Below are positions 1 through 60,138 of a DNA stretch of 64,000 nt, piece by piece. Each line of letters opens with the position of its first letter. Position 1 is the first letter of the stretch. A program made the translations under genes and the position numbers. The notes beneath the pieces were generated by a model. That model saw nothing but the letters and a program-made list of their open reading frames with translations. It made no database searches and was not told where the DNA came from. The DNA comes from a virus. Its lineage: Duplodnaviria > Caudoviricetes. The DNA lies in the IMG/VR virus record IMGVR_UViG_2773857716_000001, positions 28,559 through 92,558 of that record. One strand, given 5' to 3'.

Positions 1-341
1 CGGAGGTGGGCGGCGTAGGCGGGGGAGGTGGGCTGGACGGTGAGGCAGCCGGTGGCGTCGAGGGAGACGGGCTGGACCTTGCCGACGAGCTCGGGGCACA
101 GGGTGTGCCATTGGTCGACGATGTTGCCGCCGGCCATGCCGGTCTTCCAGTCCTGCTCGGCCTCGATGCGCTTGATGACGTTGCCGAGCCCGACGGGGTC
201 GCGGCCGTCGCCTGGTCGCGCACGCACGGTCTTGCTCTTGCGCTTGGTGGGGTCGTTGCCGGGGATGGCCCAGCTGCGGTTTTTGTAGGCGGCGAGGGCT
301 TCGCGGCAGATGTCTTTGCCGGACGGCTGGGGCTCAGTCAT
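1..341 (-). CDS. dciA: DciA (DUF721) family protein, 3' end outside window
   Basis: Manual translation from ATG at 341 (overlaps the upstream stop): MTEPQPSGKDICREALAAYK...DGRDPVGLGNVIKRIEAEQDW...GNIVDQW...LTVQPTSPAYAAHLR, matching the actinobacterial DUF721 pattern. Confidence 0.75.
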   Translation of the reverse strand, partial: MTEPQPSGKDICREALAAYKNRSWAIPGNDPTKRKSKTVRARPGDGRDPVGLGNVIKRIEAEQDWKTGMAGGNIVDQWHTLCPELVGKVQPVSLDATGCLTVQPTSPAYAAHL

Positions 342-1039
342 CGGGTCACCTCTCGGACGGGAATGCCGGCGGCGCGGGCGAGCTTCATGCAGTTGCGGGT
401 GCCGTAGGACCGGCCGAGGGGAAATCCGAGACAGAGGTACGCTCCGCGGCGCACGAGTTCGGCGTTCCGGCGGGGACCGGCCGAGGGGCAGAAGTCATCC
501 AGTTTGCCGGGGTGAGCGGTGTCGCCAGGCTTCTTTCGGCGGCGGTGCCCAGGGCCGGGCGGACAGTTGGGAGCACAGTGATCCCAGTCGGCTTCCAGGC
601 GCTCGGAGACGATGCCGTACGCCTCATGGGTCCGTGCCCAGCGATGAACGATGGGATCAGCTCCGTCGGGGCAAGCCCCCTCCACGAAGGCGACGCGCAC
701 GCCGTGGCCATAGATCTGCACCGCGTCGTGCCAGGAGTCCAGGAGCGCGTCCTCGATGAGCTGGGTGTCCCGGTGTTCGCGGGAGCCAGTGGTCAGGATG
801 CGCACGGTGCGGAGGGTGAGTGTCACCGACCGGATGATCGGCGCTGGCAGCGTGGCGTTGAGTCGTTCGATCAGGTTGGGACCGGCCAGACGCAAGAGGC
901 TGTGGGCCGCGGGGTTGTCGCAGCGCACGGTCAGCTTCTGCGTCTCTTCGTCGTAACCGACCGGTGCGATGTTGCTGGTCGTCACCACCTCTTTCCACGC
1001 CTCTCGCAATTCGGAGGCGAGGTTGATCTCGCGGCTCAT
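338..1039 (-). CDS. DciA/DUF721 domain fused to a SLOG (YspA/DUF2493-like) domain
   Basis: N-term PVGYDEETQKLTVRCDNPAAHSLLRLAGPNLIERLN (DUF721 core); C-term RILTTGSR...EGACPDGAD...AGPRRNAELV...GTRNCMKLARAAGIPV (SLOG motifs). Confidence 0.75.
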   Translation of the reverse strand: MSREINLASELREAWKEVVTTSNIAPVGYDEETQKLTVRCDNPAAHSLLRLAGPNLIERLNATLPAPIIRSVTLTLRTVRILTTGSREHRDTQLIEDALLDSWHDAVQIYGHGVRVAFVEGACPDGADPIVHRWARTHEAYGIVSERLEADWDHCAPNCPPGPGHRRRKKPGDTAHPGKLDDFCPSAGPRRNAELVRRGAYLCLGFPLGRSYGTRNCMKLARAAGIPVREVTR

Positions 1040-2517
1040 GCGTAGACCTCCTGGTCGGCGAGGTAGCGGTTGACGGCGGCGTTGGTGTAAACGCGGCGGG
1101 CGTCGGCCTCACCCATCCAAGAGATGGCGATTCCGATGATGGCCGGGTCCTTGGCGGCCGCGGCGCGCTGATCGATGACCTCGGCGCGGGACAGGGATGC
1201 CGGGTCGAAGGTTGTGGTTGCGGCGGTGTACTCGGTGCAGCCCTCCTCCGCGACCGGGGCCTGCTGGACGCGGGTGAAGGCTTCGGCAACCAGGCGCTGG
1301 ACGTGGGCGCTGGACGGGCCGGGTCCGAACGTCTCGTACTGCGTGCGGTCGTGCTCGCTTCGGGCGGCCTGCCGGGAGTCACGCCACGCCTGGACGCACT
1401 CCTGCCGGGCCTGGGGGGTGCGGAGGATCCGGGTGGCGCCCTTGAGGCGGCGGGCGAGGACTCCGGACGGGCGGCGGATGCCCTGGTCGTCACCGATGGC
1501 GAACTGGGACAGGTAAGCGGCCACCTCGGTGACGGACCAGCCGGCGTCCGCGACTTCGCGGGCTACCCAGGCGATACGGGCGGGGCTGGCGCCGCCGAGC
1601 CACGGGACCTGGGCGACGAGCTCACGGCCGAGCTGATGGCGACGGCCGACGCGGTTGAGGGCGCGACGGGCCCGCTGCTTGGGAATCTTCGGGGTGGGGC
1701 AATCGCTGGTCCCGCTGGCGAGCTTGCTCTCAGGGGGATAGGTAGTAGTTCCCGCAGATGTCGTCGTAGAGGTACCACCCTGCATTGGGGTGCAACGGGC
1801 CCTGCGCTGAGACGGCTTCCGGGAGCGGGTGCGGTGGACCTTCCGGGCGGCCTTCTTCGCGAGCTTCCCGATGGTGCTGCGGGACTCCTCGGCGATGCCG
1901 ACGGGACGCCGTTGCACCCCTTCGCCGATGATGCGGATGCCGAGGGCCTCGTCGAACGCGACCGGGATGACCCGCTCGTACACGGATGCCTGCGCACCGA
2001 CGCCGGAGACGCGGGTGCCCTTGGAGCGGTAGGCGAGGAGTCCGGCTTCGCGGAGCATGTCGAAGTGGTACTGCACGGCTCGCTCGGACAGCCCCAGCTT
2101 GCGCGCGAGGTAGGCGATCCCGGGGCGGCACTCGGTGAGCGCGGCGATCTCCTGGCAGATGCGGATGGTGGTCTGGTTCATGCCGCGAGGGCCGTGGGTG
2201 CGGCTGGGCTTGTAGAGGCCGGAGCTGTGGACCCAGTGGACGGACTGCATCCAGGAGTGGCCGCAGGTGGCGACACGTCCGGTGGTGGTGCCGATCCATT
2301 GGCCGTTGGGGGCGACACGGAGTGCCGTCTGAGCGCTGTGGTTGCGCTGCCCGGGGAGGGAAATCCGGGACGAATCGCCCAAGTCGGGGGCGTGAAGCTG
2401 ACAAGCGGTGTCGACGTCGTGCAAGATAGGTCCCGTCGTCAGGCACGCCTGATGGCATGCGAAAGGCCTTCGGGTCGGTCGTTGCTTCTCGGCAGAAGCG
2501 GATTGCTCGGAGCGCAA
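1036..2517 (-). CDS. HTH protein, putative replication initiator (true start probably downstream of 2517)
   Basis: ECRPGIAYLARKLGLSERAVQYHFDMLREAGLL winged-HTH typical of initiators; stop overlaps the start of the DciA-SLOG gene. Confidence 0.6.
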   Translation of the reverse strand: MRSEQSASAEKQRPTRRPFACHQACLTTGPILHDVDTACQLHAPDLGDSSRISLPGQRNHSAQTALRVAPNGQWIGTTTGRVATCGHSWMQSVHWVHSSGLYKPSRTHGPRGMNQTTIRICQEIAALTECRPGIAYLARKLGLSERAVQYHFDMLREAGLLAYRSKGTRVSGVGAQASVYERVIPVAFDEALGIRIIGEGVQRRPVGIAEESRSTIGKLAKKAARKVHRTRSRKPSQRRARCTPMQGGTSTTTSAGTTTYPPESKLASGTSDCPTPKIPKQRARRALNRVGRRHQLGRELVAQVPWLGGASPARIAWVAREVADAGWSVTEVAAYLSQFAIGDDQGIRRPSGVLARRLKGATRILRTPQARQECVQAWRDSRQAARSEHDRTQYETFGPGPSSAHVQRLVAEAFTRVQQAPVAEEGCTEYTAATTTFDPASLSRAEVIDQRAAAAKDPAIIGIAISWMGEADARRVYTNAAVNRYLADQEVYA

Positions 2518-2546
2518 CCGGGGTGGTACTCGGGGCGGTCCGAACG

Positions 2547-2612
2547 CTGGAGGGCTGGTAACCCGTCCAGCAGCAGAGGGGCCGTAGTCCGGCCGGTGCT
2601 GGTAACACCGGT
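2547..2612 (-). promoter_or_regulatory. Two hairpins in the rep leader, each containing GTTACCAGC (minus strand) at the loop
   Basis: ctggagggctggtaacccgtccag (2547-2570) and gccggtgctggtaacaccggt (2592-2612). Confidence 0.55.
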
Positions 2613-2659
2613 TGGCGGAGGCGGCCCGGGGCGGTCGAGGAATCTCCCGCCGGATATGG

Positions 2660-3064
2660 CTACGTCATCTGATCCCCTTCAGTGGGTGGGGTCTGTGCCC
2701 GTTGCTCGACAATGTCGAAGCGAACCGGGCTCGGCAGTTCGTGGGCTCCCGTCCGTCTCGTGTCGAAGTAGAGGCAGTCGAGCAGGACGGCCAGCCTCGC
2801 CTCCAGCTGGTCCGGTCGGTCGCCCAGCCGCGTGCCGGACACTTCCGTGCGGAGGCGAACCGTGCGCGAGGTCAGATCGAGTGAACTCCCGGGCGCGAAG
2901 AACGTATCGACGCTCCTCTGGATCCTCTCGGGAGTCAGGTGCCATTCCTGCTGCTGGACAGATACGCGCGGCTTCGGGCGTGGGCAGGAGACTGCGATGT
3001 TCCAGGTGCGGGCGCTCATCGCTCGCCCTCCACCCAGAACTTGCGGCACGCGGGGCGCTGGCAT
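2660..3064 (-). CDS. hypothetical protein (likely start near 3019, MSART)
   Basis: ORF within a minus-strand run, ATGA overlap with the upstream gene. Confidence 0.45.
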   Translation of the reverse strand: MPAPRVPQVLGGGRAMSARTWNIAVSCPRPKPRVSVQQQEWHLTPERIQRSVDTFFAPGSSLDLTSRTVRLRTEVSGTRLGDRPDQLEARLAVLLDCLYFDTRRTGAHELPSPVRFDIVEQRAQTPPTEGDQMT

Positions 3065-3390
3065 CGACCGGAGGCGTCAACCTTTGAGGCCGGGACCAGA
3101 TCCGCCAGATCGCTTTCCTCGCCGAGTTCCACGCTTCCGTTGCATGCGGCTACGGAAGCCCCGTACACGTATCCGGATCCGGTGACGGCGATGTGCACGA
3201 CGCCCCGGGAGTTCCAGTTGTTGCGGCCTTCGCCGTTGCGAGTGCCGGCGAGGACTGACCCGCGGTACGTCAGTACCCGGCGAGGCTCTTGGGCTTTCGC
3301 GGGGTGGTAGTCGTCGGGTCGGTTGGTCCGATGGTGCAGGACCTCGGCCTGGTAGTCGTGGACCTCAATGCGGCCCACCGCGGCGCTCAT
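3016..3390 (-). CDS. hypothetical protein with C-terminal CxxxxC
   Basis: ORF with overlapping start/stop on both sides. Confidence 0.55.
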   Translation of the reverse strand: MSAAVGRIEVHDYQAEVLHHRTNRPDDYHPAKAQEPRRVLTYRGSVLAGTRNGEGRNNWNSRGVVHIAVTGSGYVYGASVAACNGSVELGEESDLADLVPASKVDASGRCQRPACRKFWVEGER

Positions 3391-3531
3391 CGTGCGCTGT
3401 GGGTAGTGGTGACAGGGTCTCCGCTCTGCGTCGCCGGTGTGATCTTCACGGCGGTGGCTGGAGTCCCACTGTCTGATAGCCCGGGTGTCCGGGTACTCTG
3501 AGCCATATCGCTGGCCTTTCTACGTTGTGGC

Positions 3532-3608
3532 TGGCGGTGGCCGGGTTGACTGCCCGGCAACGGCCCCGCCACGATCCCGGTTACCAGCCGGGGGAGCGGG
3601 GCCGCTCC
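3532..3608 (-). ncRNA. candidate structured small RNA (C4/CI-like antisense RNA)
   Basis: Minus strand: cggccccgc...gcggggccg stem enclosing the hairpin cccgGCTGGTAACcggg, then a gccggg-cagtcaa-cccggc hairpin; the loop is complementary to the rep leader loops. Confidence 0.45.
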
Positions 3609-3770
3609 ATTTGTAGTTTGAGTGGCCGTCAGAAGCTGAATGCTCGTCTGGCGCAGGCCCCAGCCTAGCGGTTTACCTCGCCACCCCTCTACCTCCCTTG
3701 CATACGTGTCGATAACTGTTGATTCATCAATACGACCAGCTCATCGGGTCATCGGCGCCCTCCCGTCCGC

Positions 3771-3797
3771 GTCCTATAGTTTTGGGAAGTAAATAAC
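3771..3797 (+). repeat. 27-bp AT-rich site, exact inverted copy of 18028-18054
   Basis: gtcctatagttttgggaagtaaataac; reverse complement present at 18028-18054. Confidence 0.9.
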
Positions 3798-3833
3798 GGG
3801 AGTCAGCACAGGTCAGGCGCCTGCGGCTTTGAA

Positions 3834-4244
3834 CTACCCGACATCGGCCAGCACGGCGAACTTGGTTGTTGCGGTGTGTGGTTGGGGGATCGGCAGCGGG
3901 TGGACTTGTGCGGTTCTGTCGGGGCCGTCGTGCTGGACGGTGGCCTGCCGGTGTCGGGTGCGGGCTGCTGTGGCGGCGGCGGTGCAGCGGGGGCCGCGGC
4001 AGCCGTGGTTGTTGTAGCCGCCCGCGGTGCCGTGCGGGATGCGGTTGTCGCGGCCTGCGGCTTTTGCCGCGGCCAGGCGTTGGGCGAAGCCGGGGTTGCG
4101 GGCTGCCAGTTGTGTGGGGGTCCTGCGGCTGATGCCGAGCTTGTCGGCGGCGTCGCCGATGCGGACGCCCGAGGCGACGAGGCGCAGGAACTCGACCTGG
4201 GCGGCCTGGTCGAAGGTGACGGGGCGGCCGCGGCCGGCGGTCAC
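3834..4244 (-). CDS. HTH DNA-binding protein with HGT..GY...CRC-like motif
   Basis: IGDAADKLGISRRT HTH; PHGTAGGYNNHGCRGPRC. Confidence 0.6.
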   Translation of the reverse strand: MTAGRGRPVTFDQAAQVEFLRLVASGVRIGDAADKLGISRRTPTQLAARNPGFAQRLAAAKAAGRDNRIPHGTAGGYNNHGCRGPRCTAAATAARTRHRQATVQHDGPDRTAQVHPLPIPQPHTATTKFAVLADVG

Positions 4245-4639
4245 TCGTGGTCTCCGCGCGCGATGTCCTGCTCAGTGTTGGCGCGGTGCCGGCCGTGGGA
4301 TGCGGTGACGGCGACCCGGCGGGCCATGGCCTGGTATCCGGCGTCGACGAGGGCCGTGCGCAGCCGGTCCAGGGCCTGCGGCTCCCAGGTGGGTGCGGAG
4401 ACGATGCGGCCGGCGCGGTAGCCGACTCTCAGGCCGTGCTCGTATATCGCCGTCACCACCTCCTCCGGCACGTCCGGCCACAGCACGGTGGGGAGCTTCG
4501 TGGGCTGACCGAGGACGTCGAGGGTGGCGGCGGCGAGGACGCCGGTGAGCATGTCGGCGGAGGTGACGGCTCGCTGCTCGTGGGAGTGGTCGGCGGCTGC
4601 GACGTCCAGGGCGGCGGGGAGTTCGGGGGTGGTGGTCAT
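4241..4639 (-). CDS. hypothetical protein
   Basis: Start MTTTPELP overlaps the upstream stop. Confidence 0.55.
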   Translation of the reverse strand: MTTTPELPAALDVAAADHSHEQRAVTSADMLTGVLAAATLDVLGQPTKLPTVLWPDVPEEVVTAIYEHGLRVGYRAGRIVSAPTWEPQALDRLRTALVDAGYQAMARRVAVTASHGRHRANTEQDIARGDHE

Positions 4640-5490
4640 GCGGCGGGCTCCAGGACGGTGGTGATGGGGAGGGTGAGGGGCTGGACGGTGCGGACGATCC
4701 GCAGCCGCGGCCGGCGGGCGCCGCTGGTAGTGGGGGCGGCGGGTGTGCGGCGGCCGCGGGCGAGGTGCGGGAACCCGGGCAGGACCAGCTGCACGGGCCG
4801 GGCCGGCGCGATCCGCCGCTGCCGGGAGCCGTCCGTGTTCGGGGCCGCGGCTATGGGCCAGCGCCCGTCCGGGGCGATCCGAACTCCCGCGGGGAGGACG
4901 CCGAGTTCCCGGGCCCGCTCCAGGAGCTGCTGCCTGCTCGCGGTCTCCTTGTCCAGGCCGAGGAGGCCGCACAGGAGGCTGCGGTGCCAGTTGCTGGTGC
5001 GGACGTCCATGCCCGCCCGATACGCGACCAGTTCCTCGTCTGTCTCACGCGCCAACGACTTCAGGAGGGCCTGCTTCTGGGCGGTGCGTGCCTCGTCGAG
5101 CCGGGCGTCGTCCGCTGCAGGTGCCGCGGGTACGCCGGCCTCGCGGCGGCGGGCGATCAGCGCCTTGTGGCGGTCCAGGCTCCGCATCCCGCCGAGGACG
5201 CCCTCGGGTTCGGCGAGCTTGCCATCGGAGGTCTCGGTGAGGCCGTAGGTGCGGCACACGGCCAGGACCGGGCAGGTGCCGCACACGGCCTCGGCCGCCT
5301 CCAGCCGCAGGTTGCGCACCGACGGGCCCTCGCCGCCCTCCTCCGTGTACGGCCCCCATGCGTCCAGGCTCAGGTCCGGGTTGCCCTGGGCGCGGCCGGG
5401 CTGGTCCGGGTCGGGCGCGCACCCGCGGTAGCGCCAGTGGCGGTGGTCTTCGAGCTGTTGGCGTGCCGTCTCCGGCGTGAGGGTGGTCAT
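4636..5490 (-). CDS. WhiB-like (Wbl) Fe-S regulator with C-terminal extension
   Basis: RGC...AVCGTCPVLAVC...EGVLGGM: four Cys plus a G[V]xGG turn. Confidence 0.7.
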   Translation of the reverse strand: MTTLTPETARQQLEDHRHWRYRGCAPDPDQPGRAQGNPDLSLDAWGPYTEEGGEGPSVRNLRLEAAEAVCGTCPVLAVCRTYGLTETSDGKLAEPEGVLGGMRSLDRHKALIARRREAGVPAAPAADDARLDEARTAQKQALLKSLARETDEELVAYRAGMDVRTSNWHRSLLCGLLGLDKETASRQQLLERARELGVLPAGVRIAPDGRWPIAAAPNTDGSRQRRIAPARPVQLVLPGFPHLARGRRTPAAPTTSGARRPRLRIVRTVQPLTLPITTVLEPAA

Positions 5491-5765
5491 GAGGGGTCCC
5501 CGCTTCCGTGCTGCGTGCTGTGCTGGGTGAGGGCGTGGGTGACGATGGCGGTCGCGGCCGCGAGGACGTCCTGCTCGACGCGGTATTGGCGGGCGCCGGC
5601 GACGAGCCGGGCGACGTTCGCGGAGTGGTCCCGGGCTACGGCGGCGTCGGTGATGCGGCGCTCCGCCTGGACGGCGGTCAGGGCGCGGCGCATCCGCCAC
5701 CAGGCCACAGTGAGGCCGGCGGTGGAGAGGAGCGCCACGATCAACGCGGTGAGCATGGCGCTCAC
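5487..5765 (-). CDS. small membrane-anchored protein
   Basis: N-terminal hydrophobic helix; coupled ORF. Confidence 0.55.
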   Translation of the reverse strand: MSAMLTALIVALLSTAGLTVAWWRMRRALTAVQAERRITDAAVARDHSANVARLVAGARQYRVEQDVLAAATAIVTHALTQHSTQHGSGDPS

Positions 5766-6113: not shown

Positions 6114-7577
6114 TCACGCCGCAGACCGGGACTGGACGGTCAGCAGTCCGCCCTGCTGGCCGCCGGAGGGGCAGCCGAACGGGGAGCAGCCCTGCACCTC
6201 GTCCTCCTCTTCCTCCAGCTCCAGCTCCCCTTCGAAGGCCAGGTCGAGGAGGTCGCCCTGTTCGAACTCTCGGCGCTGTATGCGGTCGATGGGGGCCTGG
6301 TCCAGCGGCAGAGCCGAGATGTGTAGGAAGCGTTCGCCGTCCAGGCCTGGGCCGGTACGGAAGCGGTGGTCGAAGTCGACGGCGCGCTGCCACTCGGCGG
6401 GATTGGTGTCCCGCATGCGGCGCCAGGAGGCGTTGGAGCGGTACGGGCAGAAGTAGCAAGCGGACTTCGGGGTGGAGGCCCAGCCGCGGGAGGCGAGGTA
6501 TGCCCGGCACTGGGTGCGGGTCATGTTCAGTTCCAGCAGCGGGTGCCGGCTACGGCTGTAGCGGGAGTCCTTGATGTCGGAGGCTCGGTCGATTTCGTCG
6601 GTGGAGAACCCGACCCACTGCTCGACCCACTTTCCGGCCGGGGGCTGGCCGATGCGGCTGAGGCTTCCCAAGCCGCCGCAGACCGAGCACTCGCCGGTCT
6701 CGTCCTCACCGCGCTTGGCGCGCCAGGGAGCGACGCGCTGCCCGGCGCCGTCGCACTTGTTGCAGGGGCGCTCGGCGCCGGCCTTGGCGCCGAGGAGGAG
6801 GCGGACCTGCTCCATGATTCCGCGGATCTTGTATTTCTGGGTGCAGAAGCGTCGGATCATGCCCAGGTCGCGTTCCTGGACCATCTGCCAGGCCACCGGG
6901 ATCCGTCCGCTGGAGTTGCAGCTCGCGCACGGGGCCGGCATCACGTCGAGTCCCAGTCGCTTCATAGCTCGGGCCACGGTAGCTTCCGGGACCGGCGCAT
7001 AGCCATCCTCCGGACCCATCGTGGGGTTCTCGGCGGCGGCCTGCTCCAACTCGGCCAGCGTCACCCGGCCGTTCTCGCGACGCCTGGCAGCCATAGGAAG
7101 CTCATCGAAGAGCCCCCTCCATGCCTTCTGGTCGGCCAGGACCCGGAAGCGAGCCCACCCGCAGCCTTCGCCGGCGCCGTCCAAGCCGTCATCGGATGTC
7201 GTGGTCTGGCCGCACAGCTTCCACGCGGCGACCCGCTTGACCGTGCGCCACTTCGAAGCGGTGAATGCCGGGATGGACGACATCTTGTTCGGGTCGAACA
7301 AGTCGTTGTCGAGGTTGCCGTACTGGACGCGGATGATGGGGATGCCGGCCGGGCGGGCAATCTCCCGCTCCAGGCGGTCGAGGTGGTCGTACACCTCCTG
7401 CGGCTCTGCGCCGGTGTCAGCGAAGATCGCGTAGTCCAGCTTGGGGAGCACGCCCTCTGCGGACAGCATCAGTAGCGTCGTGGACTGCACCCCTGCCCCT
7501 AGGGACAGGACCCGCAGTGTTGGGGTGTCGGTGACGTCGCCCTCAATGACTCGCTTGGCGACGGTGGAGATGGTCAT
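6114..7577 (-). CDS. PAPS-reductase / adenine nucleotide alpha-hydrolase family protein with Zn-finger insertions
   Basis: VLSLGAGVQST (PP-loop variant), AIFADTGAE, CTQKYKI, VGFSTDE, KSACYFCPY; start MTIST after GGAAAGGA RBS. Confidence 0.75.
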   Translation of the reverse strand: MTISTVAKRVIEGDVTDTPTLRVLSLGAGVQSTTLLMLSAEGVLPKLDYAIFADTGAEPQEVYDHLDRLEREIARPAGIPIIRVQYGNLDNDLFDPNKMSSIPAFTASKWRTVKRVAAWKLCGQTTTSDDGLDGAGEGCGWARFRVLADQKAWRGLFDELPMAARRRENGRVTLAELEQAAAENPTMGPEDGYAPVPEATVARAMKRLGLDVMPAPCASCNSSGRIPVAWQMVQERDLGMIRRFCTQKYKIRGIMEQVRLLLGAKAGAERPCNKCDGAGQRVAPWRAKRGEDETGECSVCGGLGSLSRIGQPPAGKWVEQWVGFSTDEIDRASDIKDSRYSRSRHPLLELNMTRTQCRAYLASRGWASTPKSACYFCPYRSNASWRRMRDTNPAEWQRAVDFDHRFRTGPGLDGERFLHISALPLDQAPIDRIQRREFEQGDLLDLAFEGELELEEEEDEVQGCSPFGCPSGGQQGGLLTVQSRSAA

Positions 7578-7711
7578 GCGGAGGTCCTTTCCGTGAGCAG
7601 GGTCTGTGGGCCGCGTGGGTGGCGCGGCAACGGGTGAGGCCGGGAGGGCCGGAGCGACGACCGCTTCGGCCGGCACTTCCCGCCCCTCCACATCCAGCTG
7701 CGCACCTGTCA

Positions 7712-9337
7712 TCAGGCGGCGACCGCCAACTTCGCGGCGCCGCCCTGCTCCTCGTAACGAGACAGTTCCTCGCCGCTGATGGCCTCGACCAGCGCGCACA
7801 GCAGCACCTCGGCGGCGTTCGGCGTGACGGCGTTCCCGTACTGGCGCACCCGCTCCCGCTTCGAGCCGAGGACCGTGTAGTCGTCAGCAAAGGACATCGC
7901 GCGGCCGATCTCGTGCGGCTCAAGCATGCGGAACCGCACATCTTCGATGGCCGGCTGGCCGTTCACCAGGGCGTACCGGTCCCGAGTCGTCAGGGCACCC
8001 ACAGGGGCGGTGACGGGCCGGGCGGCGCCGTTGCCGTAGTACGGGACCAGGAGGTGCTCGGTGATGCTGTCCGGAGTGACCAGGCCGTGATGGTTGCCAG
8101 AGGCGCACACGGTGGCGAGGGCCTCGGAGACGGAGCGGGCGACTGATCCGCCGCCGCGCAACTCTGCGACGAACGGCAACCAGGCCAATCCCGTTTCGTT
8201 GCGGGTGGTCTGCGCTCGCAAAGGCAGGGCCGCCGAGGTCGCAGACTTCCCGTCTCGTCCTTCGACGGGCACCATCAGCGGCGGCACCGCGAGCGCGTCG
8301 TTCTCGCGGGTGGTGCGGGTCGGCATGGGATCCAGCACGCTTGACGCGTCGTTGCGCCATGTCCCGCCCGCGGGAACCATCATCGGCACCGGGGTGGCGA
8401 ACCGCTCCAGTCCGGCCTTGATCCGGGCGAGGGTCTTGTCCGCCAGGGGCCGGGCCCGGTCGCCGATGCGCTGGCCGGGGATCGACCAGTCGATCGCAGC
8501 CAGCGCGGGCAGCGCATCCGGCTCCACCACGCTGTTGCGGCACGTGGTGTGAGGGCAGCGGTAGACGTACTGCTGGCGGTAACGACCCATGTCGACGCCA
8601 GGGCGCTTCCACGACTGCACGGCCCGCACCCACTCGTCGCACGTCTCGCACCAGGCCCGCGGCCGCAGCCACTTGTCCCAGTCAGGCGTGCGGCCCAGCG
8701 ACTCGTGCCAGTAGCCGACGTACAGCCGGTCACGGGACTGCGGGGCCCGGTGAACGGTGCGGGGGTCGGCGTGCATGCTGTTCAGGGCGATGATGTGGGT
8801 GCGGTAGCCCATCTTGTGGATCTCGCCGATCCACCGGTCCCACTGGTCCCACGACCGCACGTCCACGACGTTCTCGACGATGCCGGCCTTGACCAGGCCG
8901 CCGCGTTCTATGACACCCCGCAGGTACAGCGGCACCTCCTCCATCAGCGCCCGGGACTCTTCCTCCAGCGTCGGGCCGCCCTCGTCGTCGGCCTCGAACT
9001 TGCTCTGCTCGATCGCGGCGTACAGGTCGAGGAGATCGCCCTGCATCGCGTTGACGAAGTCCCGCTTCTTGCCCTTGGCCACGCTCCAGTTGGTGCACTC
9101 CGGAGACGCCCAGAAGATGTCGGTGACCGGCCACGCCCACACCGGCGCCTTGCGGATGTCGCCGCGGTAGTGGTCGGCGTCCGGGAAGTTCGCGGCGTGC
9201 GACTCGATCGCCCGCTCCCAGTGGTTCGCCGCTCGGGCCACCCTCAGGCCAGGCACGGCGTGCGCGCCCTGGGAGGAGCCGCCGGCCCCGCAGAACCAGT
9301 CCATGACGGTCAAAGCGTCGTTGTCGTTGCGGTACAT
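7712..9337 (-). CDS. DNA (cytosine-5) methyltransferase
   Basis: Motif I DWFCGAGG, IV WASPEC, VI ENV, VIII QSRDR, X QYGNAV. Confidence 0.9.
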   Translation of the reverse strand: MYRNDNDALTVMDWFCGAGGSSQGAHAVPGLRVARAANHWERAIESHAANFPDADHYRGDIRKAPVWAWPVTDIFWASPECTNWSVAKGKKRDFVNAMQGDLLDLYAAIEQSKFEADDEGGPTLEEESRALMEEVPLYLRGVIERGGLVKAGIVENVVDVRSWDQWDRWIGEIHKMGYRTHIIALNSMHADPRTVHRAPQSRDRLYVGYWHESLGRTPDWDKWLRPRAWCETCDEWVRAVQSWKRPGVDMGRYRQQYVYRCPHTTCRNSVVEPDALPALAAIDWSIPGQRIGDRARPLADKTLARIKAGLERFATPVPMMVPAGGTWRNDASSVLDPMPTRTTRENDALAVPPLMVPVEGRDGKSATSAALPLRAQTTRNETGLAWLPFVAELRGGGSVARSVSEALATVCASGNHHGLVTPDSITEHLLVPYYGNGAARPVTAPVGALTTRDRYALVNGQPAIEDVRFRMLEPHEIGRAMSFADDYTVLGSKRERVRQYGNAVTPNAAEVLLCALVEAISGEELSRYEEQGGAAKLAVAA

Positions 9338-10233
9338 CAGGCGGCGTTCCTTTCGCGGTTGGCGGCAGTCGCGCGGGCGATGAGCGCGTCAAGGAAGTGC
9401 TCGAACGGCATCGGCTTCCGCTCCGGCGCCAGCCCCGGGACCTCCATGCCGAGGACACCCTTCTGCCGGGCGCCCTCCTTGATCTGCGTGAGGACGTCGG
9501 GGCGTTGCCAGTTCTCCTTGGCCTGCTCGTAGAACTTGGCGAGGATCGCGCCGGCCACCGGATCCGGCGACTCGCTGGCTGGCGGCGCCTGCTCGGCACC
9601 GCGACCTTCGGCAGGGACGGACGCGTCCTGAGTTGCGTCCGGCTCCGGCTCGGGCTGGACGGGCGGATCGACCGGCTCGGGCTGCGGTTCCGTGTCCTTC
9701 TGCCATTCGTTCGGCGGGTGCGGTGCCGAGAAGTGCACCACCGCGTCCGACTTCCCGCCGTTGTACAGGCCCAGGCCGAACTGGTCGCCGAGGTTGACCG
9801 CGCACCGCTTGAGGGCCTGGGACAGGGCCGTCTTCATCGCCATGTCGTGGGCGTCGCCCAGCTTCGGCTGGTTGATGGCGTCGCCGGCCGCGCCGTCTTC
9901 GAAGTGGGTGATCTCGCGGCCATCGGCGGCGTACACAGTGAGGCGGACCTGGGCGCGGTAGACGACGGTCCAGCGGCCCGGCTTGATCTCCTGCTGGGAC
10001 ACCAGGTCCAGGGAAAGCGTCTCGATGGAGAAGCCGCCGAAGCCGAAGATGCGGATCAGGTGACGGCGGACGTCCCAGGCTTCGACGTAGGACTGTCCTT
10101 GCGTATGGCAGACGCGGTTGCCGGCGATGCCCTTGTGCAGCATGCGGAGCTGGACGGGGGTGAAGCGGGGGGCCTGGTTTTGGGTGTGCTGGGTGGGGCC
10201 CTCCGCGGTTGCGGGGGCCTGCGTGTTCGCCAT
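9337..10233 (-). CDS. Rad52/Rad22 (Sak-like) single-strand annealing protein
   Basis: SYVEAWDVRRHLIRIFGFGGFS...AHDMAMKTALSQALKRCAVNLGDQFGLGLY. Confidence 0.85.
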   Translation of the reverse strand: MANTQAPATAEGPTQHTQNQAPRFTPVQLRMLHKGIAGNRVCHTQGQSYVEAWDVRRHLIRIFGFGGFSIETLSLDLVSQQEIKPGRWTVVYRAQVRLTVYAADGREITHFEDGAAGDAINQPKLGDAHDMAMKTALSQALKRCAVNLGDQFGLGLYNGGKSDAVVHFSAPHPPNEWQKDTEPQPEPVDPPVQPEPEPDATQDASVPAEGRGAEQAPPASESPDPVAGAILAKFYEQAKENWQRPDVLTQIKEGARQKGVLGMEVPGLAPERKPMPFEHFLDALIARATAANRERNAA

Positions 10234-18059: not shown

Positions 18060-20003
18060 TCACGGGGCCAGAACCTCCCGCCACGCAGCCACAATCCGCC
18101 GCGACAGATACACATGGCCCGCATCCGTCGGATGCACGTTGTCGCCACCCACGTAGGACGCTGCGTTCCCCGACGTGATCCACGCCCCCTGCGTCGTGAT
18201 CAACGTGCCCGTCGCGTCGTACACGCTGCCCGTGATCGGCGACACGAACGGGAACCCCGCCGCGGCCGCCTGCGTCCGCAACGTCGCGTCCGTGTTAGTG
18301 ATCGACCCAGCCGGACTCGCCGTCGGCGCCCAACACCCAATCACCAGCACCTGGCACGCGGGCAGACCGCTCTTCACCGCGGAGAACAGCGACGCTGCCG
18401 CAGTGCCGATCGACGACTGGCTGCCCGTGTTGTCGTTGTACCCACCCCAGATCACCAGGCGCGTCGGGGCCCACGCCACCACGTCCGCGGCCACACGATC
18501 CCCGAACGTCGCATACGAGCCGGGCGTGATGTAGCCGGTCCCGCCCCTCCCCTGCTCCCACGCATCCGTCGCGCCCAGCAGCCGGGCCGCCCGTGCGAAC
18601 CACGTGCCCGCGCCCGCCCCGGTGTTCTGCGCCGAGCCGTCGCTGATGGAGTCGCCGAGGACCATCAGCCGGCCCCCCTGCAGCGGCACCCTCCACATCG
18701 TCGCCGACGGAGGCAGGTACACCCCGCCGAACGGCATCGTGTAGAAGTCCAGGCGGACCCTGCGCGGCGCAGCGCTACCAAGGTCGACGGTGAGCATGTG
18801 CCCGGAGCCCGCCGTCGTCCCGCCACTGGACTGCATCAGGTCGGTAACCTTCCGACCATCGATCGACAGCCGGTACATCGTCGAGCTGGAGATGTACTTG
18901 AACCGCAGCTGGAAGACCTGGGCGTCCGTCCCGAACTCCACCGACCAGATTCCTTGGCCGCTGCTGTAGGTGTTCGGGTACTTGCTGGTCGGGAGGACGT
19001 AGTTGGTGTCGGGGCTGGACGCGCCGATCGCGAAGTTGCCCGCGCCCGCGTAGGCGTACGGGCCGGTCACGTCCGAGCCGGACAGGGCCACCAGCGGAGG
19101 CGCGTACTTGATGTAGCCGGTGGTCGGCGTCGTCGTCTGCGCGGTGCTGATGGTCGGGGCGCTGCCGGTGTACAGGCTGTCGGCCACCACCGGGTCCGGC
19201 AGGTCGCGGCGGCGCCACAGTGTGGCCGGGTCGCCCGGATCGCCCTTGTCGCCCTTCGGGCCTGTCGCCCCGGTCGGCCCGGTTGCTCCCGTCGGGCCCG
19301 TACTGCCCGTCGCACCCTGGGGCCCTGCAGGGCCGACGTCGCCTTGGTCACCCTTGGGGCCCTGGGCGCCAGCGGCTCCCGCTGGCCCTGCAGGACCGGT
19401 GTCTCCGGTGTCGCCCTTCGGCCCGGCAGGACCCGTCGCGCCGGTGGCCCCCTGCAGGCCGGTTGCTCCCGCGGGGCCCGGATCGCCCTGGGGGCCGGCA
19501 TCCCCTGTTGCTCCCGGCTCGCCCTGCAGGCCCTGCTCGCCTTGCGGTCCCTGTGCCCCTGTGGCGCCGGTCGGCCCGGCGGGGCCCGTGGCTCCCGTCG
19601 GGCCGACCTCGCCCTGCGGGCCCTCGGGGCCCGGCACGTACACGATCGTCCCCGCGCCCAACGGCGCGCCCGACAGCGCGATCCGCACGTCGCCGAGCCA
19701 CCACGGCTCGTCGGACTCCGGCACCACCACGTACGTCGTGTTCGGGGTGCCATCCAGTGCCCGGCCCTCGGTTATCGCCCAGGCCGTGTCGCCAGCATCC
19801 GCGGTGATCTGCGCGTTCGGCGTCAGGTCCAGCTCCCACAGCCCATCCTCGTCGGGGGTGGCCGTGTCCTGCCCTGTGACCTCCCCCTGCGCGGTGGCGA
19901 CGTATCCGACGGCCCTCTCCCCCGCCAGGTCGACGAGGACCGCGGTGATCTGCACCCGCGTCGGGTCCGGTAGATCGAGGAGCTTGCCCCGAACGATGGT
20001 CAT
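18060..20003 (-). CDS. tail fibre-like protein: collagen Gly-X-Y stalk plus SGNH/GDSL esterase
   Basis: Long GXY run; VLGDSIS, GGTGY, GGYND, DNVHP. Confidence 0.85.
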
Positions 20004-27686: not shown

Positions 27687-28589
27687 CTAGAGGGCGGTGT
27701 AGGCGTCGCGCCAGGTGACGCTGAGGCGGGCTGAGTTGGTCGGGTCGACAGCCGTCCACCGCATCTCGGACTGGCCAGGCGGTAGCGAGAACTGATCGAG
27801 GCGCGATGCCGGGGACAGGTACGTCTCGGCGTTGCCGCCGTTCTCCCGCACCACCGACAGACGGCCGGGACGGGTATCGAGCTCCACCCACTGCTCCGCG
27901 GTCAGCGTCAGCGTCGGCAGCGTCAGCGTGCGGCCGGATGCGACGTGCGTAATGGTGACGTTGCTGCACGGCCCCTGGATGCGCAGCACAGGCCAGGTGC
28001 TGCGGGTGCCCGCGTTGGTGACCCACCCGGGGCGTACCGCTGCCTCGGTGGCGGAGGTGACGAAGATCGGCGCGAAGACGGGTGCGGTGAAGCCGCCGCC
28101 AGTCATCCACCCCAAGGGGATGTCGACCGTTTGCTCGGCGTCCCCGTACCAGGTCGGGTCGGTGGCCTCGAAGGCCATGTCGACGGGGATGAAGCCGTGG
28201 ATGGCTGTGGCCATTTCCGGGGCGAGGCGGCGCAGGCGGCCGTTGACGCGGCGGGTGTCGCTGCCTGGCCGGCGGACGCGCAGCGGCATGGTGGCGCCGC
28301 CGACGAGCCGGATCGTGGGGTCGTCGGCGGCTGCCTGCATCTGCGCGAGGATCGCCTCACAGGCCGGGCCGTTCCCGGGGACGCGGATATTGGCGTCGAA
28401 CTCGATGGTGCGGGCCGTGTAGTAGTCCGGGCCCGGGAACGCGCCGTCGGCGGACGGCTGGTCGACGTCGCTGTCGCGTGTACCCGGCCAGCCCAGGCCG
28501 GTGATCTCTTTGAACCGGACCGGCGTGCCGGTGCCCATGAGGATTCCGCCGAGGTCCCACTGTCCTTCTTCCAGGTCAATGTCCGGCAC
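27687..28589 (-). CDS. distal tail (Dit-like) protein
   Basis: Directly after the tape measure gene; DGAFPGPDYY, FEATDPTWY, NAGTRSTWP. Confidence 0.75.
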   Translation of the reverse strand: MPDIDLEEGQWDLGGILMGTGTPVRFKEITGLGWPGTRDSDVDQPSADGAFPGPDYYTARTIEFDANIRVPGNGPACEAILAQMQAAADDPTIRLVGGATMPLRVRRPGSDTRRVNGRLRRLAPEMATAIHGFIPVDMAFEATDPTWYGDAEQTVDIPLGWMTGGGFTAPVFAPIFVTSATEAAVRPGWVTNAGTRSTWPVLRIQGPCSNVTITHVASGRTLTLPTLTLTAEQWVELDTRPGRLSVVRENGGNAETYLSPASRLDQFSLPPGQSEMRWTAVDPTNSARLSVTWRDAYTAL

Positions 28590-31500
28590 GGGCTGCCACC
28601 CCTCCCCGCTTGGCGCGCCGCATCTGACGGCCGACCTGGTGGCCGATGTCGTAGGCGGAGGCGTTGGTCTTGGTCACCGGGACGTTCACAGTGGTGGGGC
28701 CTTCCTGGCTGATGACGACGATGCGGCCGGCGTTGGCGTCGGTGAGGCCGACGCCGAAGCGGTGGGCGACGTCGCCGAGGACCGCGGTGGCGGAGGCGCG
28801 CTTGTTGGCGCCGAGGGGGATGTACGCCTCGCCGCCGGTGGAGGGTTCGGCGAACGTGACGGCGCCGGTGCGGGTGCCGTAGATACCGGGGCGGATGCCG
28901 CCGTTGGCGTAGCTCAAGCCCTTCTGCGCGCGGGCCAGGTCGACGAGGAATTTCGTCGAGCGGGAGCCGAGGCTGCTCTTGATCTGGGCACTGGCCTTGG
29001 TGGCGACAGTAACGATGTCGTCCTCGCCCAGGCCCGTGGCTGCGGCGACGTCGTGGATGCCGGTCTTGCTGGTCTTGACCGCGGCGATGATCTGCACGAG
29101 CTGCGCGATCTGCTCGGAGGAGAGCGCATTGTTTGCCGCGGTAGCGGCCCTGTTCGCCGAGGACGCCTTTCCCTTGTCCTTGACCGCGGCGGCCGCCAGG
29201 GCTTCAGCGTCCTGGTCGTTCTGCGAGGCGAGACGCGTAGCGAGAGCCCCGTAGCCGCCGGCGGCGAGCTTGGTGAGGTTCGCCTGGAAGGTGGCCTGGT
29301 CCTTGACGGCGGCGTTCAGCTGGGAGGTGTACTCGCCCAGGGAGGCCCCTGGCGGAGGCGGCCAAATTCCGCAGCTGGGATGCCATGTCTTTCAAGTACT
29401 TCGACGAGCCGTGGGCCATGTTCTTCGTGAGGGCGATGCCTTCGTCGCCCATCTCGGCGAGGGCGTCGGCTACGTCCTGGCCGGCGCGGGATGCGACGGT
29501 GGCGAGGTCCTTGCGCCAGGCGTCGAGGGAGTTGTTCGAGGCTCGCAGTTTGCTGTTGAAGATGGAGAGGTTGAAGTTGCCTTTCTTGTCGTTCGAGGCG
29601 CTGATGAGCCCGGACAGGGTGTATCGCTGGGCTCCGGCTCCGGTGCCGGAGTAGGTGAAGTCGAGGCCGCCGCCGTCCGCGAACTGGGTGACGCTTCCCG
29701 CGGCGTTCCAGGCGATGCCCTTGCCGCCGAGTCGGCGCACGGTCTCCTCGGCTATCTTCCGAGACCGTGGGCGCTTCGACCTGGCCAAAGGGATGTAGCT
29801 CTCGCCCTGAGTTTCGTCCTCCGCCCACACTCGCCATTCGCCAGCGCGGGCGATCTGTGCGACGTGGTTCTCACGCCGCATGCCGCCGCCGGCGAAGCGG
29901 CTGACCTGGACGGAGCCGTCGGCCTGGTACCCGGAGGCGTAGGGGCCCGGGTTGGACTTGCGGACGATGGTGTCGATGAACGTCTTCTTGTAGACGCTGA
30001 TGGTCGCCGAGCTTCCGTGGACGCTGTTGATCGCGGATTGGATTGCTGCGACTTGAGACCTGGGCGTCCCCGTCGGCACGCTGACGACCACGGTTTTCCC
30101 GTTCGTCGACTGGATTTTGAAGCCGAGGAGTTCCAGCTGTCGGCGGCCCTCGGCGGTGGGGACGTTCATGGTGATGGTCTTGCCGTGCTGCTTCTCGACT
30201 GCAGCCTTGAGGTTTTGCAGATCGCGGAGCGCTCCAGCGGTCTTGGCGCTCATGCTGATGTTTTTGCCGCCCGGCACGGCCTGCATCTGCTTGAGCAGGT
30301 TCGCGAGGTCGGCTTTGGCCTGCCCGGTCTTGGCGGTGACCTTGTATTCGCGGGTGCCGGGGATCAGCTTGACGGTGTAGCCGAGTTCCTCGAGCTTCTT
30401 CTTCGCGTCGTCGGAGAGGGTGTCGACCTTGACGGTCTTCGACTTGGGGACCTTTGCGAACTCGGCCTGGACGGCGAGGAGCTCGGCGAGGGTGGAGTCG
30501 ACGCCCTTCGTCTGGAGCAGGATGCTGACTTGGCCGGGGATGAGGCCCATGGCGTCGGCAACGCCTTGCGCCTGCTTCGTCGACAGGCCGTAGCCCTCAC
30601 CCAGCTTGATGGCCGCATCGCGGGCCTTTTGCATCTCTGCCTGGGAGGCCTTGAGCTTTTCCGGGAGCCCTTTGCCCTGGGACTCCGCGAAGTCGTAGGC
30701 AGCAATCGCGGCGTCAGCGCTGCCGCTGGCAATGTTGTTGAGGGTGTTGAAGAGGCCCTGGCCGTTCTTCGTGGTGGTGTCGATCGTGCCGTTGGTCTTG
30801 ACGAGTGCCTTGCCCCAGCCGTCGGACTTCTTGACGCCGGTGGCCATCGCCTCGTTGGCCTGGGTGATGGCCTCGTTGACGCGGGCTTGGGCTGCCTGGA
30901 GGCTGATGCTGCCGCCGGAGAGCAGGTCGAGGCTCGCGCGCAGGGCGCGGGTGCGGGAGTCGGCGTCCCCGGTCTTGTCGGCGAGGGCCGCGACGCTGTC
31001 CTTCAGCTGCTGGTAGGCCGAGACTCCCTCGCCTGAGCCCTTCTGTGCTGCGGCGAGCTCCTTCGCGGACTGCACCGAGTCCTTCATCTCTCCCTTCATG
31101 CCGGAGAGGGCTTCGGCCGCGTCCTTCGCGGACTTACCTACGGGGTCGATGTCGGTTGCCACGCCACCGCCGGAGCTGACGGTGACCTTGGTGTGGGCCT
31201 CGGCGACCGCTTCCAGCTGCTTTTGGAGACTGCCGAGGCTTTTGCCTTCGCCCAGGTAGGAGCTGGTCAGGTCTTTCAGCGTGACGCCGGAGCGGCGCAT
31301 CACGTCGACGAGTTTTTGGCGGCCGCCGCCGACCTTCATGTCCTGGATCTGCTGGGCGGCGACGGCGCGGACGTTGTCGTCGACGGCGCCCTTGGACTCG
31401 CGCAGGGCCTGGGAGAGGTTCGCGATCCGCTGGTCGTGCTCTGCGGCGGCCTGGGCTGCTTTCTGCTGTGCGCTGGCGAGGAAGCCCAGGGCGACGGTTG

Positions 31501-50202: not shown

Positions 50203-50287
50203 GGGGATACTCCTGGGTGCGGGTCGTAGTGGCCTGGGTTAGAGGGCGGGACCGGGGGCTTCCGGTCCCGCCCGCCGCATTGGGCGG

Positions 50288-52565: not shown

Positions 52566-52604
52566 CACACTCCTCACTCTCGGTAGCTGACGTGGTTGCG
52601 GTGG

Positions 52605-59910: not shown

Positions 59911-60138
59911 GCCGCTTAGGCCGCCTAGGCCGCGTTCGCGGTAGTCCTGGACGCGCGAACGGCCGGCGAGTGTGGAGCTCACCGGCCGCCCGAAGCGCAA
60001 CAGCGAGTGCGACCTCGCTGCACAAATCGCCATCCCTGCAAAAGAGGCGTTGATGAAGAGCGTACCCAAAGCAGTACGGGAAGTCCGTACTACCCCCAGC
60101 CACATGGTCGTGATCCTCCGCACGGCGGAGGTGCCTGC

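Follow-up and report, generated by a model that had tools for sequence, protein, structure and literature searches.

The question raised by this locus is what two DciA-type genes are doing beside an initiator-like gene on a viral genome, and whether they descend from a host gene captured and duplicated by the element, as an earlier note on this DNA had proposed. In the available text of PMC5109545, DciA is described as the endogenous helicase loader of most bacteria, encoded almost exclusively on chromosomes, with mobility noted in one case only, that of Streptomyces. The window analysed here is a 64,000-nucleotide stretch (positions 28,559 to 92,558) of the parent record IMGVR_UViG_2773857716_000001 (92,558 bp, 92.6 kb). 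Profile searches detected terminase, portal, capsid, tape measure and lysin genes on the record, a complete-looking siphovirus, and the record is a pZL12-related Streptomyces phage-plasmid, a virus also able to live as a plasmid.

Gene order and coupling of the locus

Three consecutive genes on the minus strand open the window, and their stop and start codons overlap, as the earlier note had described: both junctions are ATGA overlaps, each with a GGAGG-like stretch 8–10 nt upstream. The same note held that a full-length DciA gene runs off the window edge, and the parent record does contain a complete 265-amino-acid gene at 28102–28899 (window −456 to 341), the last 152 codons of which lie outside the window. 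ParA and ParB genes follow directly downstream, the DciA gene lying directly upstream of parA. The features are as follows.

1–341 (3–341 in the ORF list, open at the window edge), minus strand: first 113 codons of the 265-aa DciA paralogue (ORF, PF05258, predicted fold)
338–1039, minus strand: DciA'-SLOG fusion gene, 233 aa (ORF, coupled to both neighbours by ATGA overlaps)
818–1030, minus strand: truncated DciA (KH/DANL) domain, aa ~4–74 of the fusion (PF05258, Foldseek)
341–808, minus strand: YAcAr-type SLOG domain, aa ~78–233 of the fusion (PF10686, phrog_289, fold)
1036–2517, minus strand: gene for the Rep-like winged-helix protein (longest ORF, 493 aa)
2023–2133, minus strand: winged helix-turn-helix of the Rep-like protein, aa ~129–165 of the 493-aa ORF (sub-threshold HTH_20/24/36/ArsR matches)
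2518–3015, no strand: non-coding, ORF-free DNA ahead of the Rep-like gene, no more than a candidate promoter/origin region

A search for DnaB_C returned no match on the record at E ≤ 1 and was positive in 14 of 14 control genomes; with no such match, the element may plausibly rely on the helicase of its host. The locus is, on balance, best explained as the replication-partition module of a pZL12-like Streptomyces phage-plasmid. It resembles pZL12 (GQ919031), pSLE1, pCQ3 and pSAM1, elements of ~85–95 kb which, from what is available of PMC4487206, combine siphovirus genes with Rep-like, DciA, parA and parB genes in the same order. The pZL12 equivalents of these four genes are pZL12.20c, 18c, 17c and 16c respectively, and the window DciA is 40–44% identical to pZL12.18c; the middle gene differs, encoding a DUF6085 protein in pZL12 and DciA'-SLOG here. 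In the deposited pZL12 annotation, 18c is “Tra3-like” and 20c hypothetical. The abstract of the pZL12 paper reportedly names only “repA” as the replication locus.

The two DciA-type proteins

Both DciA-type proteins belong to the family by profile score and by predicted fold, in line with the earlier note, which had proposed a DUF721 profile search and structure prediction as checks. Against Pfam DciA (PF05258/DUF721, cut-off 24 bits), the 265-aa protein scored 35.2 bits over profile positions 2–88 (37.6 bits on the DNA of the gene), and the 113-aa piece inside the window scored 22.5 bits by itself, slightly below the cut-off. Five host chromosomal DciAs scored 88.7–90.8 bits on the same profile. 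For the NCBIfam equivalog NF002871, the 265-aa protein reached 43.2 bits, under the 246-bit cut-off, a weak criterion, since a chromosomal Streptomyces DciA also fails it (137.4 bits). A PDB sequence search with the 265-aa protein found nothing.

The structure model of this protein (pLDDT 80.6) comprises a lasso helix (aa 8–24), a disordered basic linker, a KH/DANL DciA domain (aa 52–136) and a confidently predicted C-terminal helical domain (aa 171–264, outside the window), with ~130 extra C-terminal residues carrying conserved motifs of their own. Its best structural matches were DrDciA (7ykm_A, Z 8.6, rmsd 2.6, 76 aligned) and VcDciA (8a3v_D, Z 8.1), with a Foldseek match to DciA at prob 1.00, and the fold is also common to DnaA domain I (4tps_D, Z 7.4), RbfA and other KH-like proteins (Z 5–7.4). 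The C-terminal domain in the model matched generic coiled coils only (Z about 4.8–5). A Foldseek search of the DciA model against viral models (BFVD) gave nothing better than E 0.13, which is not evidence of absence. Profile and model together indicate a true DciA-family homologue with a predicted type II KH, DnaA-domain-I-like fold.

In alignments, the lasso motif SGxDLARxALxAxK and the GRDP motif are common to the 265-aa protein and five chromosomal Streptomyces DciAs. Ten positions are near-invariant across 60 plasmid DciAs (G8, D10, L11, A12, R13, A15, L16, R47, D48 and P49); the five chromosomal proteins carry identical residues at all of them and the window protein keeps eight. The lasso and C-terminal motifs are strongly conserved over these 60 sequences at 34–71% identity. 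According to the accessible portion of PMC13501899, the lasso is the principal DnaB-binding determinant of MtDciA. The same portion describes the group-3 layout of chromosomal actinobacterial DciA (single-helix lasso, basic disordered linker, GRDP and KH domain), which the 265-aa protein shares, as it shares the PF05258 domain and KH/DANL fold of M. tuberculosis Rv0004/MtDciA and the Streptomyces proteins. Unlike chromosomal dciA, however, the gene is plasmid/phage-borne beside Rep and parAB genes, rather than in the dnaN-recF-gyrB region, and its product has the added C-terminal helical domain, falls in a separate clade and carries Tyr for Trp at one conserved column. That column is Trp in all chromosomal copies and Tyr (SPAYA) in both the window protein and the 60-sequence plasmid consensus, hence an aromatic residue is retained in the plasmid clade; it probably corresponds to MtDciA W113, a mapping drawn from the text available of PMC5720831 and not from an alignment to MtDciA. 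With a DciA fold and, at its N-terminus, the lasso helix of actinobacterial DciA, the protein is best read as a putative loader of host DnaB at a plasmid origin, a reading that sequence and model favour by a little.

The 233-aa protein had been described as a DciA-SLOG fusion. The fusion stands, with 35.9 bits against YAcAr SLOG (PF10686, cut-off 28.2), a phrog_289 match at E 3e-20 and 30.3 bits against PF05258, above its cut-off, but the DciA part is truncated rather than whole. The PF05258 match spans profile positions 24–87 only, the protein starting inside the domain without the lasso and first helices (profile positions 1–23), and alignments place Ala-His at the position of the conserved chromosomal Trp. 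The remaining DciA domain still matches 7ykm by Foldseek (TM 0.71, rmsd 1.9, 73 columns) in a model with pLDDT 94.8 and pTM 0.84. The SLOG domain has TGSR, GAD and AGPRRN motifs conserved in the family alignment and a Cys-Cys-His-Cys insert (C155, C159, H165, C184). Its fold matches are SLOG proteins of the MoCo-carrier, DprA and ThsA types (6y01, 5mll, 4ljk and 7uxs; prob 0.97–1.00, E 1e-3 to 1e-2), with which the C-terminal 155 aa share a Rossmann-like SLOG fold, whereas the window domain is of the YAcAr family, contains the Cys/His insert and shares its polypeptide with a DciA-type domain. A PDB sequence search with the fusion gave a chance designed-repeat match only, and PADLOC had no match for either this protein or the 265-aa DciA.

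A word-indexed search with the fusion gave 86 proteins with at most 74% coverage of the query, hence no full-length fusion; an exhaustive search recovered at least four full-length fusions among the 150 listed of 1738 matches. The fused form recurs in other plasmids at 38–40% identity, and a protein with two DciA' domains and a SLOG-like domain is present on a 545-kb plasmid. Architectures of the DciA-YspA (YAcAr) and multi-DciA kinds are listed by Blaine et al. 2022 (bioRxiv 10.1101/2022.01.24.477630), a survey in which the word “plasmid” is absent, and which is therefore without mobile-element context. It mentions neither a second, full DciA gene as a companion nor that the fused domain is truncated and lasso-less.

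Relatives and origin of the plasmid clade

Homologues of the plasmid-type DciA occur in 220 plasmid records. In all 36 related IMG/VR viral loci, DciA is preceded on its own strand by a Rep-like gene, and in 18 of 19 plasmid records, counted among matches listed in both searches, the two lie within 1 kb of each other. A SLOG gene adjoins DciA in 13 of the 36 IMG/VR loci, and the two are arranged in either of two ways. What lies in the middle of the module varies freely: S. platensis and pCQ3 have no gene there, pFRL2 has a partial DciA domain and other elements have SLOG fusions. In another Streptomyces plasmid-like contig, 80 nt separate the end of a DciA paralogue from the plasmid dnaB paralogue that follows it. 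Module genes are also found on non-phage plasmids of up to 545 kb.

The earlier note's proposal that the element itself captured and duplicated host DciA, to be judged by a phylogeny against chromosomal dciA, was not supported. Plasmid DciAs formed one clade (support 98/91) apart from six Streptomyces-type and 25 other actinomycete chromosomal DciAs in a tree of 89 columns, unrooted as no outgroup was included. A topology with a Streptomyces-lineage donor gave AU p = 0.42, and on these sequences such a donor appears neither shown nor rejected; recent capture from a Streptomyces chromosome is thus not favoured by the free tree, though the AU test does not reject it. The two DciA-type domains of the window are 24–28% identical (BLASTP, 40% over 40 aa, E 7e-4), which together with long separate branches rules out a recent tandem duplication. 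The single plasmid clade, its 220 plasmid records, the low identity and the recurrent fused form suggest that any capture or duplication is old and family-wide.

The third gene had been called HTH initiator-like. The winged-helix matches behind that label are all sub-threshold: HTH_20/24/36 and CggR_N at E 2e-4 to 1e-3 and RP-C at E 0.089, with 13 bits against RP-C (PF03428, cut-off 24.4) and 19.1 bits against HTH_36 (PF13730, cut-off 25). No family reached its cut-off in Pfam, NCBIfam or PADLOC, where sub-threshold wHTH or Csa3-like matches only were seen; an Atlas search returned unnamed clusters only, one with HTH_36 in 16% of members, and a PDB profile search with the Rep-like family gave SmtB (1r22) only, aligned to the wHTH stretch at E 0.94. 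The longest ORF has 493 aa, a 462-aa version (P0207) would start near window position 2424, and family conservation spans about 2379 to 1045. Homologues were detected by tblastn in 178 plasmid records, and 771 homologues are named only HTH or transcriptional regulator, a few carrying precomputed PF13730 or PF03428. From gene position and these weak matches, the protein is likely the plasmid initiator. Counting against that role, searches of 1–4400 and 59850–61450 revealed neither an iteron array nor a clear origin, but only weak two-copy repeats and modest GC dips.

Proposed helicase loading and its rivals

Under the loading model, the winged-helix protein would bind a putative origin as initiator, and the 265-aa paralogue would act as a plasmid-dedicated, ATP-independent helicase loader. 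As the element carries no dnaB, the lasso helix of this paralogue would engage DnaB supplied by the host, docking at the DH-LH module, while the KH domain may contact DNA or DnaB and the lineage-specific C-terminal helical domain may tie the loader to the plasmid initiation complex. Because it lacks the lasso, the DciA'-SLOG protein would not itself be a loader; it is conceivable, though rather doubtful, that it serves as an accessory or regulatory subunit whose SLOG domain makes loading respond to a nucleotide-type ligand or to ssDNA. ParA and ParB would then segregate the plasmid copies. As a functional analogy only, this resembles phage lambda P and DnaC/DnaI-type loaders, which in the available text of PMC13696075 act on the DH-LH module of host DnaB as mobile-element factors, but the fold is unrelated and without an AAA+ domain, and the element's factor is a paralogue of the host's ancestral loader. 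In favour of the model are the gene order and its conservation, the ATGA coupling, the ParA and ParB genes directly downstream, the family membership and fold, the conserved lasso and GRDP positions, the absence of dnaB, and the closeness of a DciA paralogue to dnaB on another contig.

Against the model, the host already has its own DciA and does not obviously need a second loader, the Pfam score is low (35 bits), Tyr replaces Trp throughout the clade and the paralogue may be dispensable. That Rep with host DciA and DnaB suffices, the paralogue only adjusting efficiency, host range or compatibility (for instance to suit hosts that differ in their DnaB, or dnaB paralogues found on related elements), is unlikely but deserves weight: all five host genomes examined encode a high-scoring chromosomal DciA, the middle gene varies freely among relatives, and some related elements carry a dnaB that is absent here. 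Retention of a full DciA gene beside Rep in all 36 loci argues against a dispensable accessory, however, and so does the conservation of lasso and C-terminal motifs across 60 sequences, which points to selection for a specific function.

Motif conservation leaves DnaB a plausible target also for diversion of the helicase and host takeover, in which the paralogue or the decoy-like DciA' domain, with neither lasso nor conserved aromatic residue, titrates host DnaB or competes with host DciA. The consequence would be slowed chromosome replication or a switch between plasmid and lytic modes rather than productive loading. We consider this improbable, as the genes sit in a maintenance module running from Rep to ParAB and occur on non-phage plasmids, a setting that stable replication fits better. 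Equally improbable is that the paralogue is not a loader at all but a KH-type domain binding other nucleic acids or proteins, such as a partition accessory or a parAB/rep regulator. Its position directly upstream of parA and the fold it shares with DnaA domain I and RbfA are consistent with this; yet DciA itself is the best fold and profile match, a conserved DnaB-binding lasso fits poorly with another role, and DciA adjoins dnaB on another plasmid. As a variant, the SLOG protein would make or sense an NAD- or ADP-ribose-derived signal in host-defence conflict, as predicted for jumbo-phage YAcAr domains; use of NAD+ by YAcAr domains is predicted in the accessible text of PMC7824862, while the PADLOC result speaks against such a role.

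Helicase loading stays the preferred reading. Extended to Streptomyces plasmids and phage-plasmids generally, a tentative proposal that we hold with less confidence is a private, ATP-independent loading system, in which the lasso of the DciA paralogue captures DnaB (the host's or a plasmid paralogue), the C-terminal domain docks on the initiator and a lasso-less DciA'-SLOG or stand-alone SLOG protein gates the process by a nucleotide-type signal.

Parts of the module are already catalogued. Publications have covered mobile dciA in Streptomyces (2016), DciA-YspA fusions (2022) and pZL12 (2010), and the name DciA is in use for these proteins at NCBI. What emerges here is that the mobile DciAs make up one large and coherent clade. 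They are linked to genes for a plasmid initiator and for partition, occur both on phage-plasmids and on other Streptomyces plasmids, carry an added domain of their own and recurrently have a SLOG protein as partner. If the paralogue is dispensable, the locus would be ordinary plasmid baggage, already annotated by NCBI. If the private loading system is real, it would give the first demonstrated example of a virus or plasmid employing a DciA-type loader, as well as a tractable model of how a non-DnaA initiator recruits DnaB in bacteria with DciA-type loading. A working loader would offer a small, non-essential and genetically tractable system for lasso-DnaB recognition, initiator-loader coupling and possible nucleotide control, and could improve Streptomyces vectors.

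Three coupled genes at the left edge of the window

The three genes with overlapping stop and start codons that the earlier note placed at the left edge of the window were confirmed by the ORFs, the junctions and the parent record.

1036–2517, minus strand: Rep-like gene, longest ORF 493 aa; a 462-aa form is P0207 in the protein collection
338–1039, minus strand: DciA'-SLOG fusion gene, 233 aa
341 to beyond the window edge (record 28102–28899), minus strand: DciA gene, 265 aa in the parent record

Both junctions read ATGA, a 4-nt stop/start overlap with a GGAGG-like stretch just 5'. The full-length DciA predicted to run off the window is indeed present, its 265 codons being followed in the parent record by parA and parB. 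When the DUF721 profile check was run, both the 265-aa and 233-aa proteins matched PF05258 above the cut-off of 24, the former at 35.2 bits (profile positions 2–88); its 113 in-window residues alone scored 22.5 bits. Homologues of this DciA already carry the NCBI names “DciA family protein” or “DUF721 domain-containing protein”. The 265-aa protein was modelled with AlphaFold on 60 homologues (pLDDT 80.6), giving the following layout.

aa 8–24: N-terminal helix
aa 28–47: disordered linker
aa 52–136: KH-like domain, with a second disordered stretch after it
aa 171–264: confident helical region

Among 48,161 PDB representatives, the top structural match of this model was the D. radiodurans DciA domain (7ykm_A, Z 8.6, rmsd 2.6, 76 aligned residues), followed by V. 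cholerae DciA (8a3v_D, Z 8.1) and then DnaA domain I (Z 7.4 and 6.6), and Foldseek concurs with the DciA fold. The first gene had been called an initiator-like HTH gene; a winged-helix signal was seen in its product, but every family match in the profile searches was sub-threshold, and neither a PDB profile search nor the Atlas gave a better one. The Rep-like protein matches 178 plasmid records, with 771 homologues among 7,999 scored candidates.

Distribution and ancestry of the plasmid DciA

The only phage records that the 265-aa DciA matched by tblastn were two of Streptomyces phage ZL12; its plasmid matches numbered 220 records, of which 216 were from Streptomyces and many were 85–95 kb. 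The gene order in pZL12 is 20c (461 aa, hypothetical), 19c, 18c, ParA, ParB, where 18c is annotated “Tra3-like” yet carries PF05258 at 33.8 bits; synteny with pZL12 has been reported for the plasmid pSLE1 (PMC4487206). A pattern search of IMG/VR based on a 60-sequence plasmid DciA alignment yielded 36 loci (near-duplicates included; several loci coincide with PLSDB plasmids), whose six-frame ORFs were searched with custom HMMs for Rep, the DciA domain, SLOG, ParA and ParB. In all 36, DciA was preceded on its own strand by a Rep match. Among 19 plasmid accessions listed for both proteins (drawn from 30 of the 220 DciA and 40 of the 178 Rep-like matches, and counted by hand from coordinates), 18 have Rep and DciA matches that share an orientation and are no more than 1 kb apart; in NZ_CP109052.1, the one exception, the best places are separated by 30 kb.

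The plasmid proteins share the exact layout of the N-terminal lasso of MtDciA, a single helix within a disordered arm, which is described as the principal high-affinity DnaB-binding element, targeting the DH-LH module (PMC13501899). In the 60-sequence alignment, the most conserved N-terminal columns are G8, D10, L11, A12, R13, A15 and L16, then R47, D48 and P49, and all ten residues are identical in five of five chromosomal Streptomyces DciAs (SGVDLARxAL...DGRDP). The window's DciA keeps eight of the ten, with I11 and C12 at the others. Unlike chromosomal DciA, the plasmid clade has Tyr in place of the STAW-motif Trp, which we infer to be W113 of MtDciA (PMC5720831), and adds a C-terminal domain with near-invariant T165, G172, Y173 and F261.

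In five of five Streptomyces genomes bearing such elements there is one chromosomal DciA (88.7–90.8 Pfam bits), along with one or two weaker copies (26.4–44.5 bits) on plasmid-size contigs. Across 61 sampled same-class genomes, a tally that takes in seven flagged as unpublished and used neither in the tree nor for the sequences given (G011, G019, G028, G034, G036, G040 and G047), 59 had a DciA match and only two had two. In a maximum-likelihood tree of the DciA domain (72 rows, 89 columns, no outgroup, five fusion-domain rows left out), a branch with support 98/91 has the 41 plasmid DciAs on one side, and another (97/84) has the six Streptomyces-type chromosomal DciAs on one side. Constraining the plasmid and Streptomyces chromosomal proteins to unite lowers the log-likelihood by 1.6 units (AU p 0.42), so the data are compatible with a donor in the Streptomyces lineage without demonstrating one. 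The domain of the window's DciA averages 36% identity with Streptomyces chromosomal copies and 28% with other sampled actinomycetes; for the DciA' domain these values are 31% and 23%. The two window domains are 24–28% identical to each other, and a quick tree including the fusion domains put these on long branches outside both the plasmid and chromosomal groups. The proposal that this element captured and duplicated host DciA is thus not supported, as the plasmid proteins group apart and the two window domains are so divergent; an old, family-wide paralogue lineage is the preferred reading instead.

The DciA'-SLOG fusion

The 233-aa protein scored 30.3 bits against Pfam DciA, over profile positions 24–87 only, and 35.9 bits against YAcAr SLOG (cut-off 28.2). 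In its model (pLDDT 94.8, pTM 0.84), the first 73 residues can be superposed on 7ykm (TM 0.71, rmsd 1.9) and the remainder resembles SLOG proteins (MoCo carrier, DprA and the ThsA SLOG); the fold calls also lean on the Pfam matches because the structural E-values are 1e-3 or weaker. The fusion has no lasso, and the window copy has no aromatic residue at the STAW-Trp position, where three of four full-length relatives have Trp. Exhaustive searching of representative proteins retrieved 1,738 matches at E ≤ 1e-3, with four full-length fusions (alignment beginning at query residue 10 or earlier) among the 150 listed. Plasmids of S. atratus and Streptomyces sp. NBC_01723 have fusions of 222 and 227 aa (38–40% identity) at the middle position of the module, and a 291-aa protein encoded elsewhere, on a 545-kb linear plasmid, combines two partial DciA domains with a SLOG-like end.

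A SLOG gene adjoins DciA in 13 of the 36 IMG/VR loci. Eight are stand-alone genes just downstream of DciA, four (L092, L100, L102 and L104) repeat the window's arrangement of a fusion gene placed between Rep and DciA, with DciA' and SLOG in one stop-to-stop frame, and one (L097) lies upstream without a detectable DciA' domain. The middle module position is empty in S. platensis and pCQ3, and pZL12 has a DUF6085 protein there. In the linear plasmid pFRL2 (L078, 4971–5531), a 186-aa “hypothetical protein” between the Rep-like and DciA genes has a partial DciA-domain match (HMM positions 27–70) and no SLOG, hence tandem partial-plus-full DciA genes recur without fusion. Blaine et al. 2022 (bioRxiv 10.1101/2022.01.24.477630) listed DciA dyads and, from Streptomyces, three DciA homologues bearing a YspA/YAcAr domain; the text of that survey does not use the word “plasmid”.

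Element gene content and the putative loader

The window covers bases 28559–92558 of a 92,558-bp IMG/VR virus record (G+C ~69%). The record is classed as linear, CheckV puts its completeness at 100%, and a search for terminal repeats found none. Its 108 ORFs, called by our own GC3-based script, were all scanned against Pfam and PHROGs, identifying large terminase, portal, scaffold, major capsid, tail tube, a 1525-aa tape measure, minor tail proteins, a GH25 endolysin, ParA and ParB, together with a tyrosine recombinase, Rad52-type recombinase, SSB, RusA, ATP-dependent ligase and C5 methyltransferase. No DnaB, primase or polymerase family was detected among them, and a DnaB_C search of the record gave no matches at E ≤ 1, the identical search being positive in 14 of 14 control genomes.

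Several further genes were observed. An MmyB-like regulator and type III polyketide synthase gene lie upstream of the window (record 7763–9719, L004), as also reported for pZL12.100 and pSLE1. A 354-aa protein (window 4636–5700) has a central WhiB domain (aa 131–178) and long Arg/Pro-rich flanks, with WhiB-family genes at the matching position in related plasmids. At 6114–9337, two overlapping genes encode a 561-aa PAPS-reductase-like protein (phrog_424), which contains a DnaJ-type CXXCXGXG stretch, and a 541-aa C5 cytosine methyltransferase; the two may be a DNA-modification pair. A 647-aa tail-fibre-like protein with collagen triple-helix repeats is encoded at 18060–20003. Two large ORFs (754 and 639 aa, 47938–52577) without Pfam or PHROG match correspond by position to the pZL12.71c–72c region, where 71c is noted as FtsK/SpoIIIE-like, and may be transfer genes.

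A dnaB paralogue is present in some related elements, two pZL12-like contigs (G002:C27 and G005:C30) among them, and 132 Streptomyces plasmids in PLSDB have a DnaB match. On a 109-kb Streptomyces plasmid-like contig (L072, G005:C23; 6900–9061), 80 nt separate the end of a DciA paralogue from the 447-aa DnaB paralogue downstream of it; the genes upstream of this pair differ and are not of the window's Rep-like family. In the window, an HTH_31-TPR regulator (58188–59450) and a 97-aa ORF precede 1.4 kb without a confidently called gene (59911–61372), in which no iterons or strong repeats were found. In the related element L073, the same regulator, small ORF and gap lead into a dnaB paralogue, at the place of which the window has a GIY-YIG endonuclease gene (61373–61873).

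The component parts of this locus are already catalogued and annotated, and Brezellec et al. had noted a case of mobile dciA in Streptomyces (PMC5109545). A full-text literature search found no paper joining “DciA” and “phage-plasmid”, and by title and abstract none of those containing both “DUF721” and “plasmid” dealt with plasmid-borne DciA. We favour, with moderate confidence, the 265-aa DciA as a putative plasmid-dedicated helicase loader acting on host DnaB, and more tentatively regard DciA'-SLOG as a possible accessory protein. In the proposed mechanism, the origin of a pZL12-like phage-plasmid would receive host DnaB from a plasmid-dedicated DciA-type loader, and a SLOG-containing protein would accompany this loader. 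Our contribution is the family-level context of plasmid DciA, together with a proposed mechanism for the putative loader.
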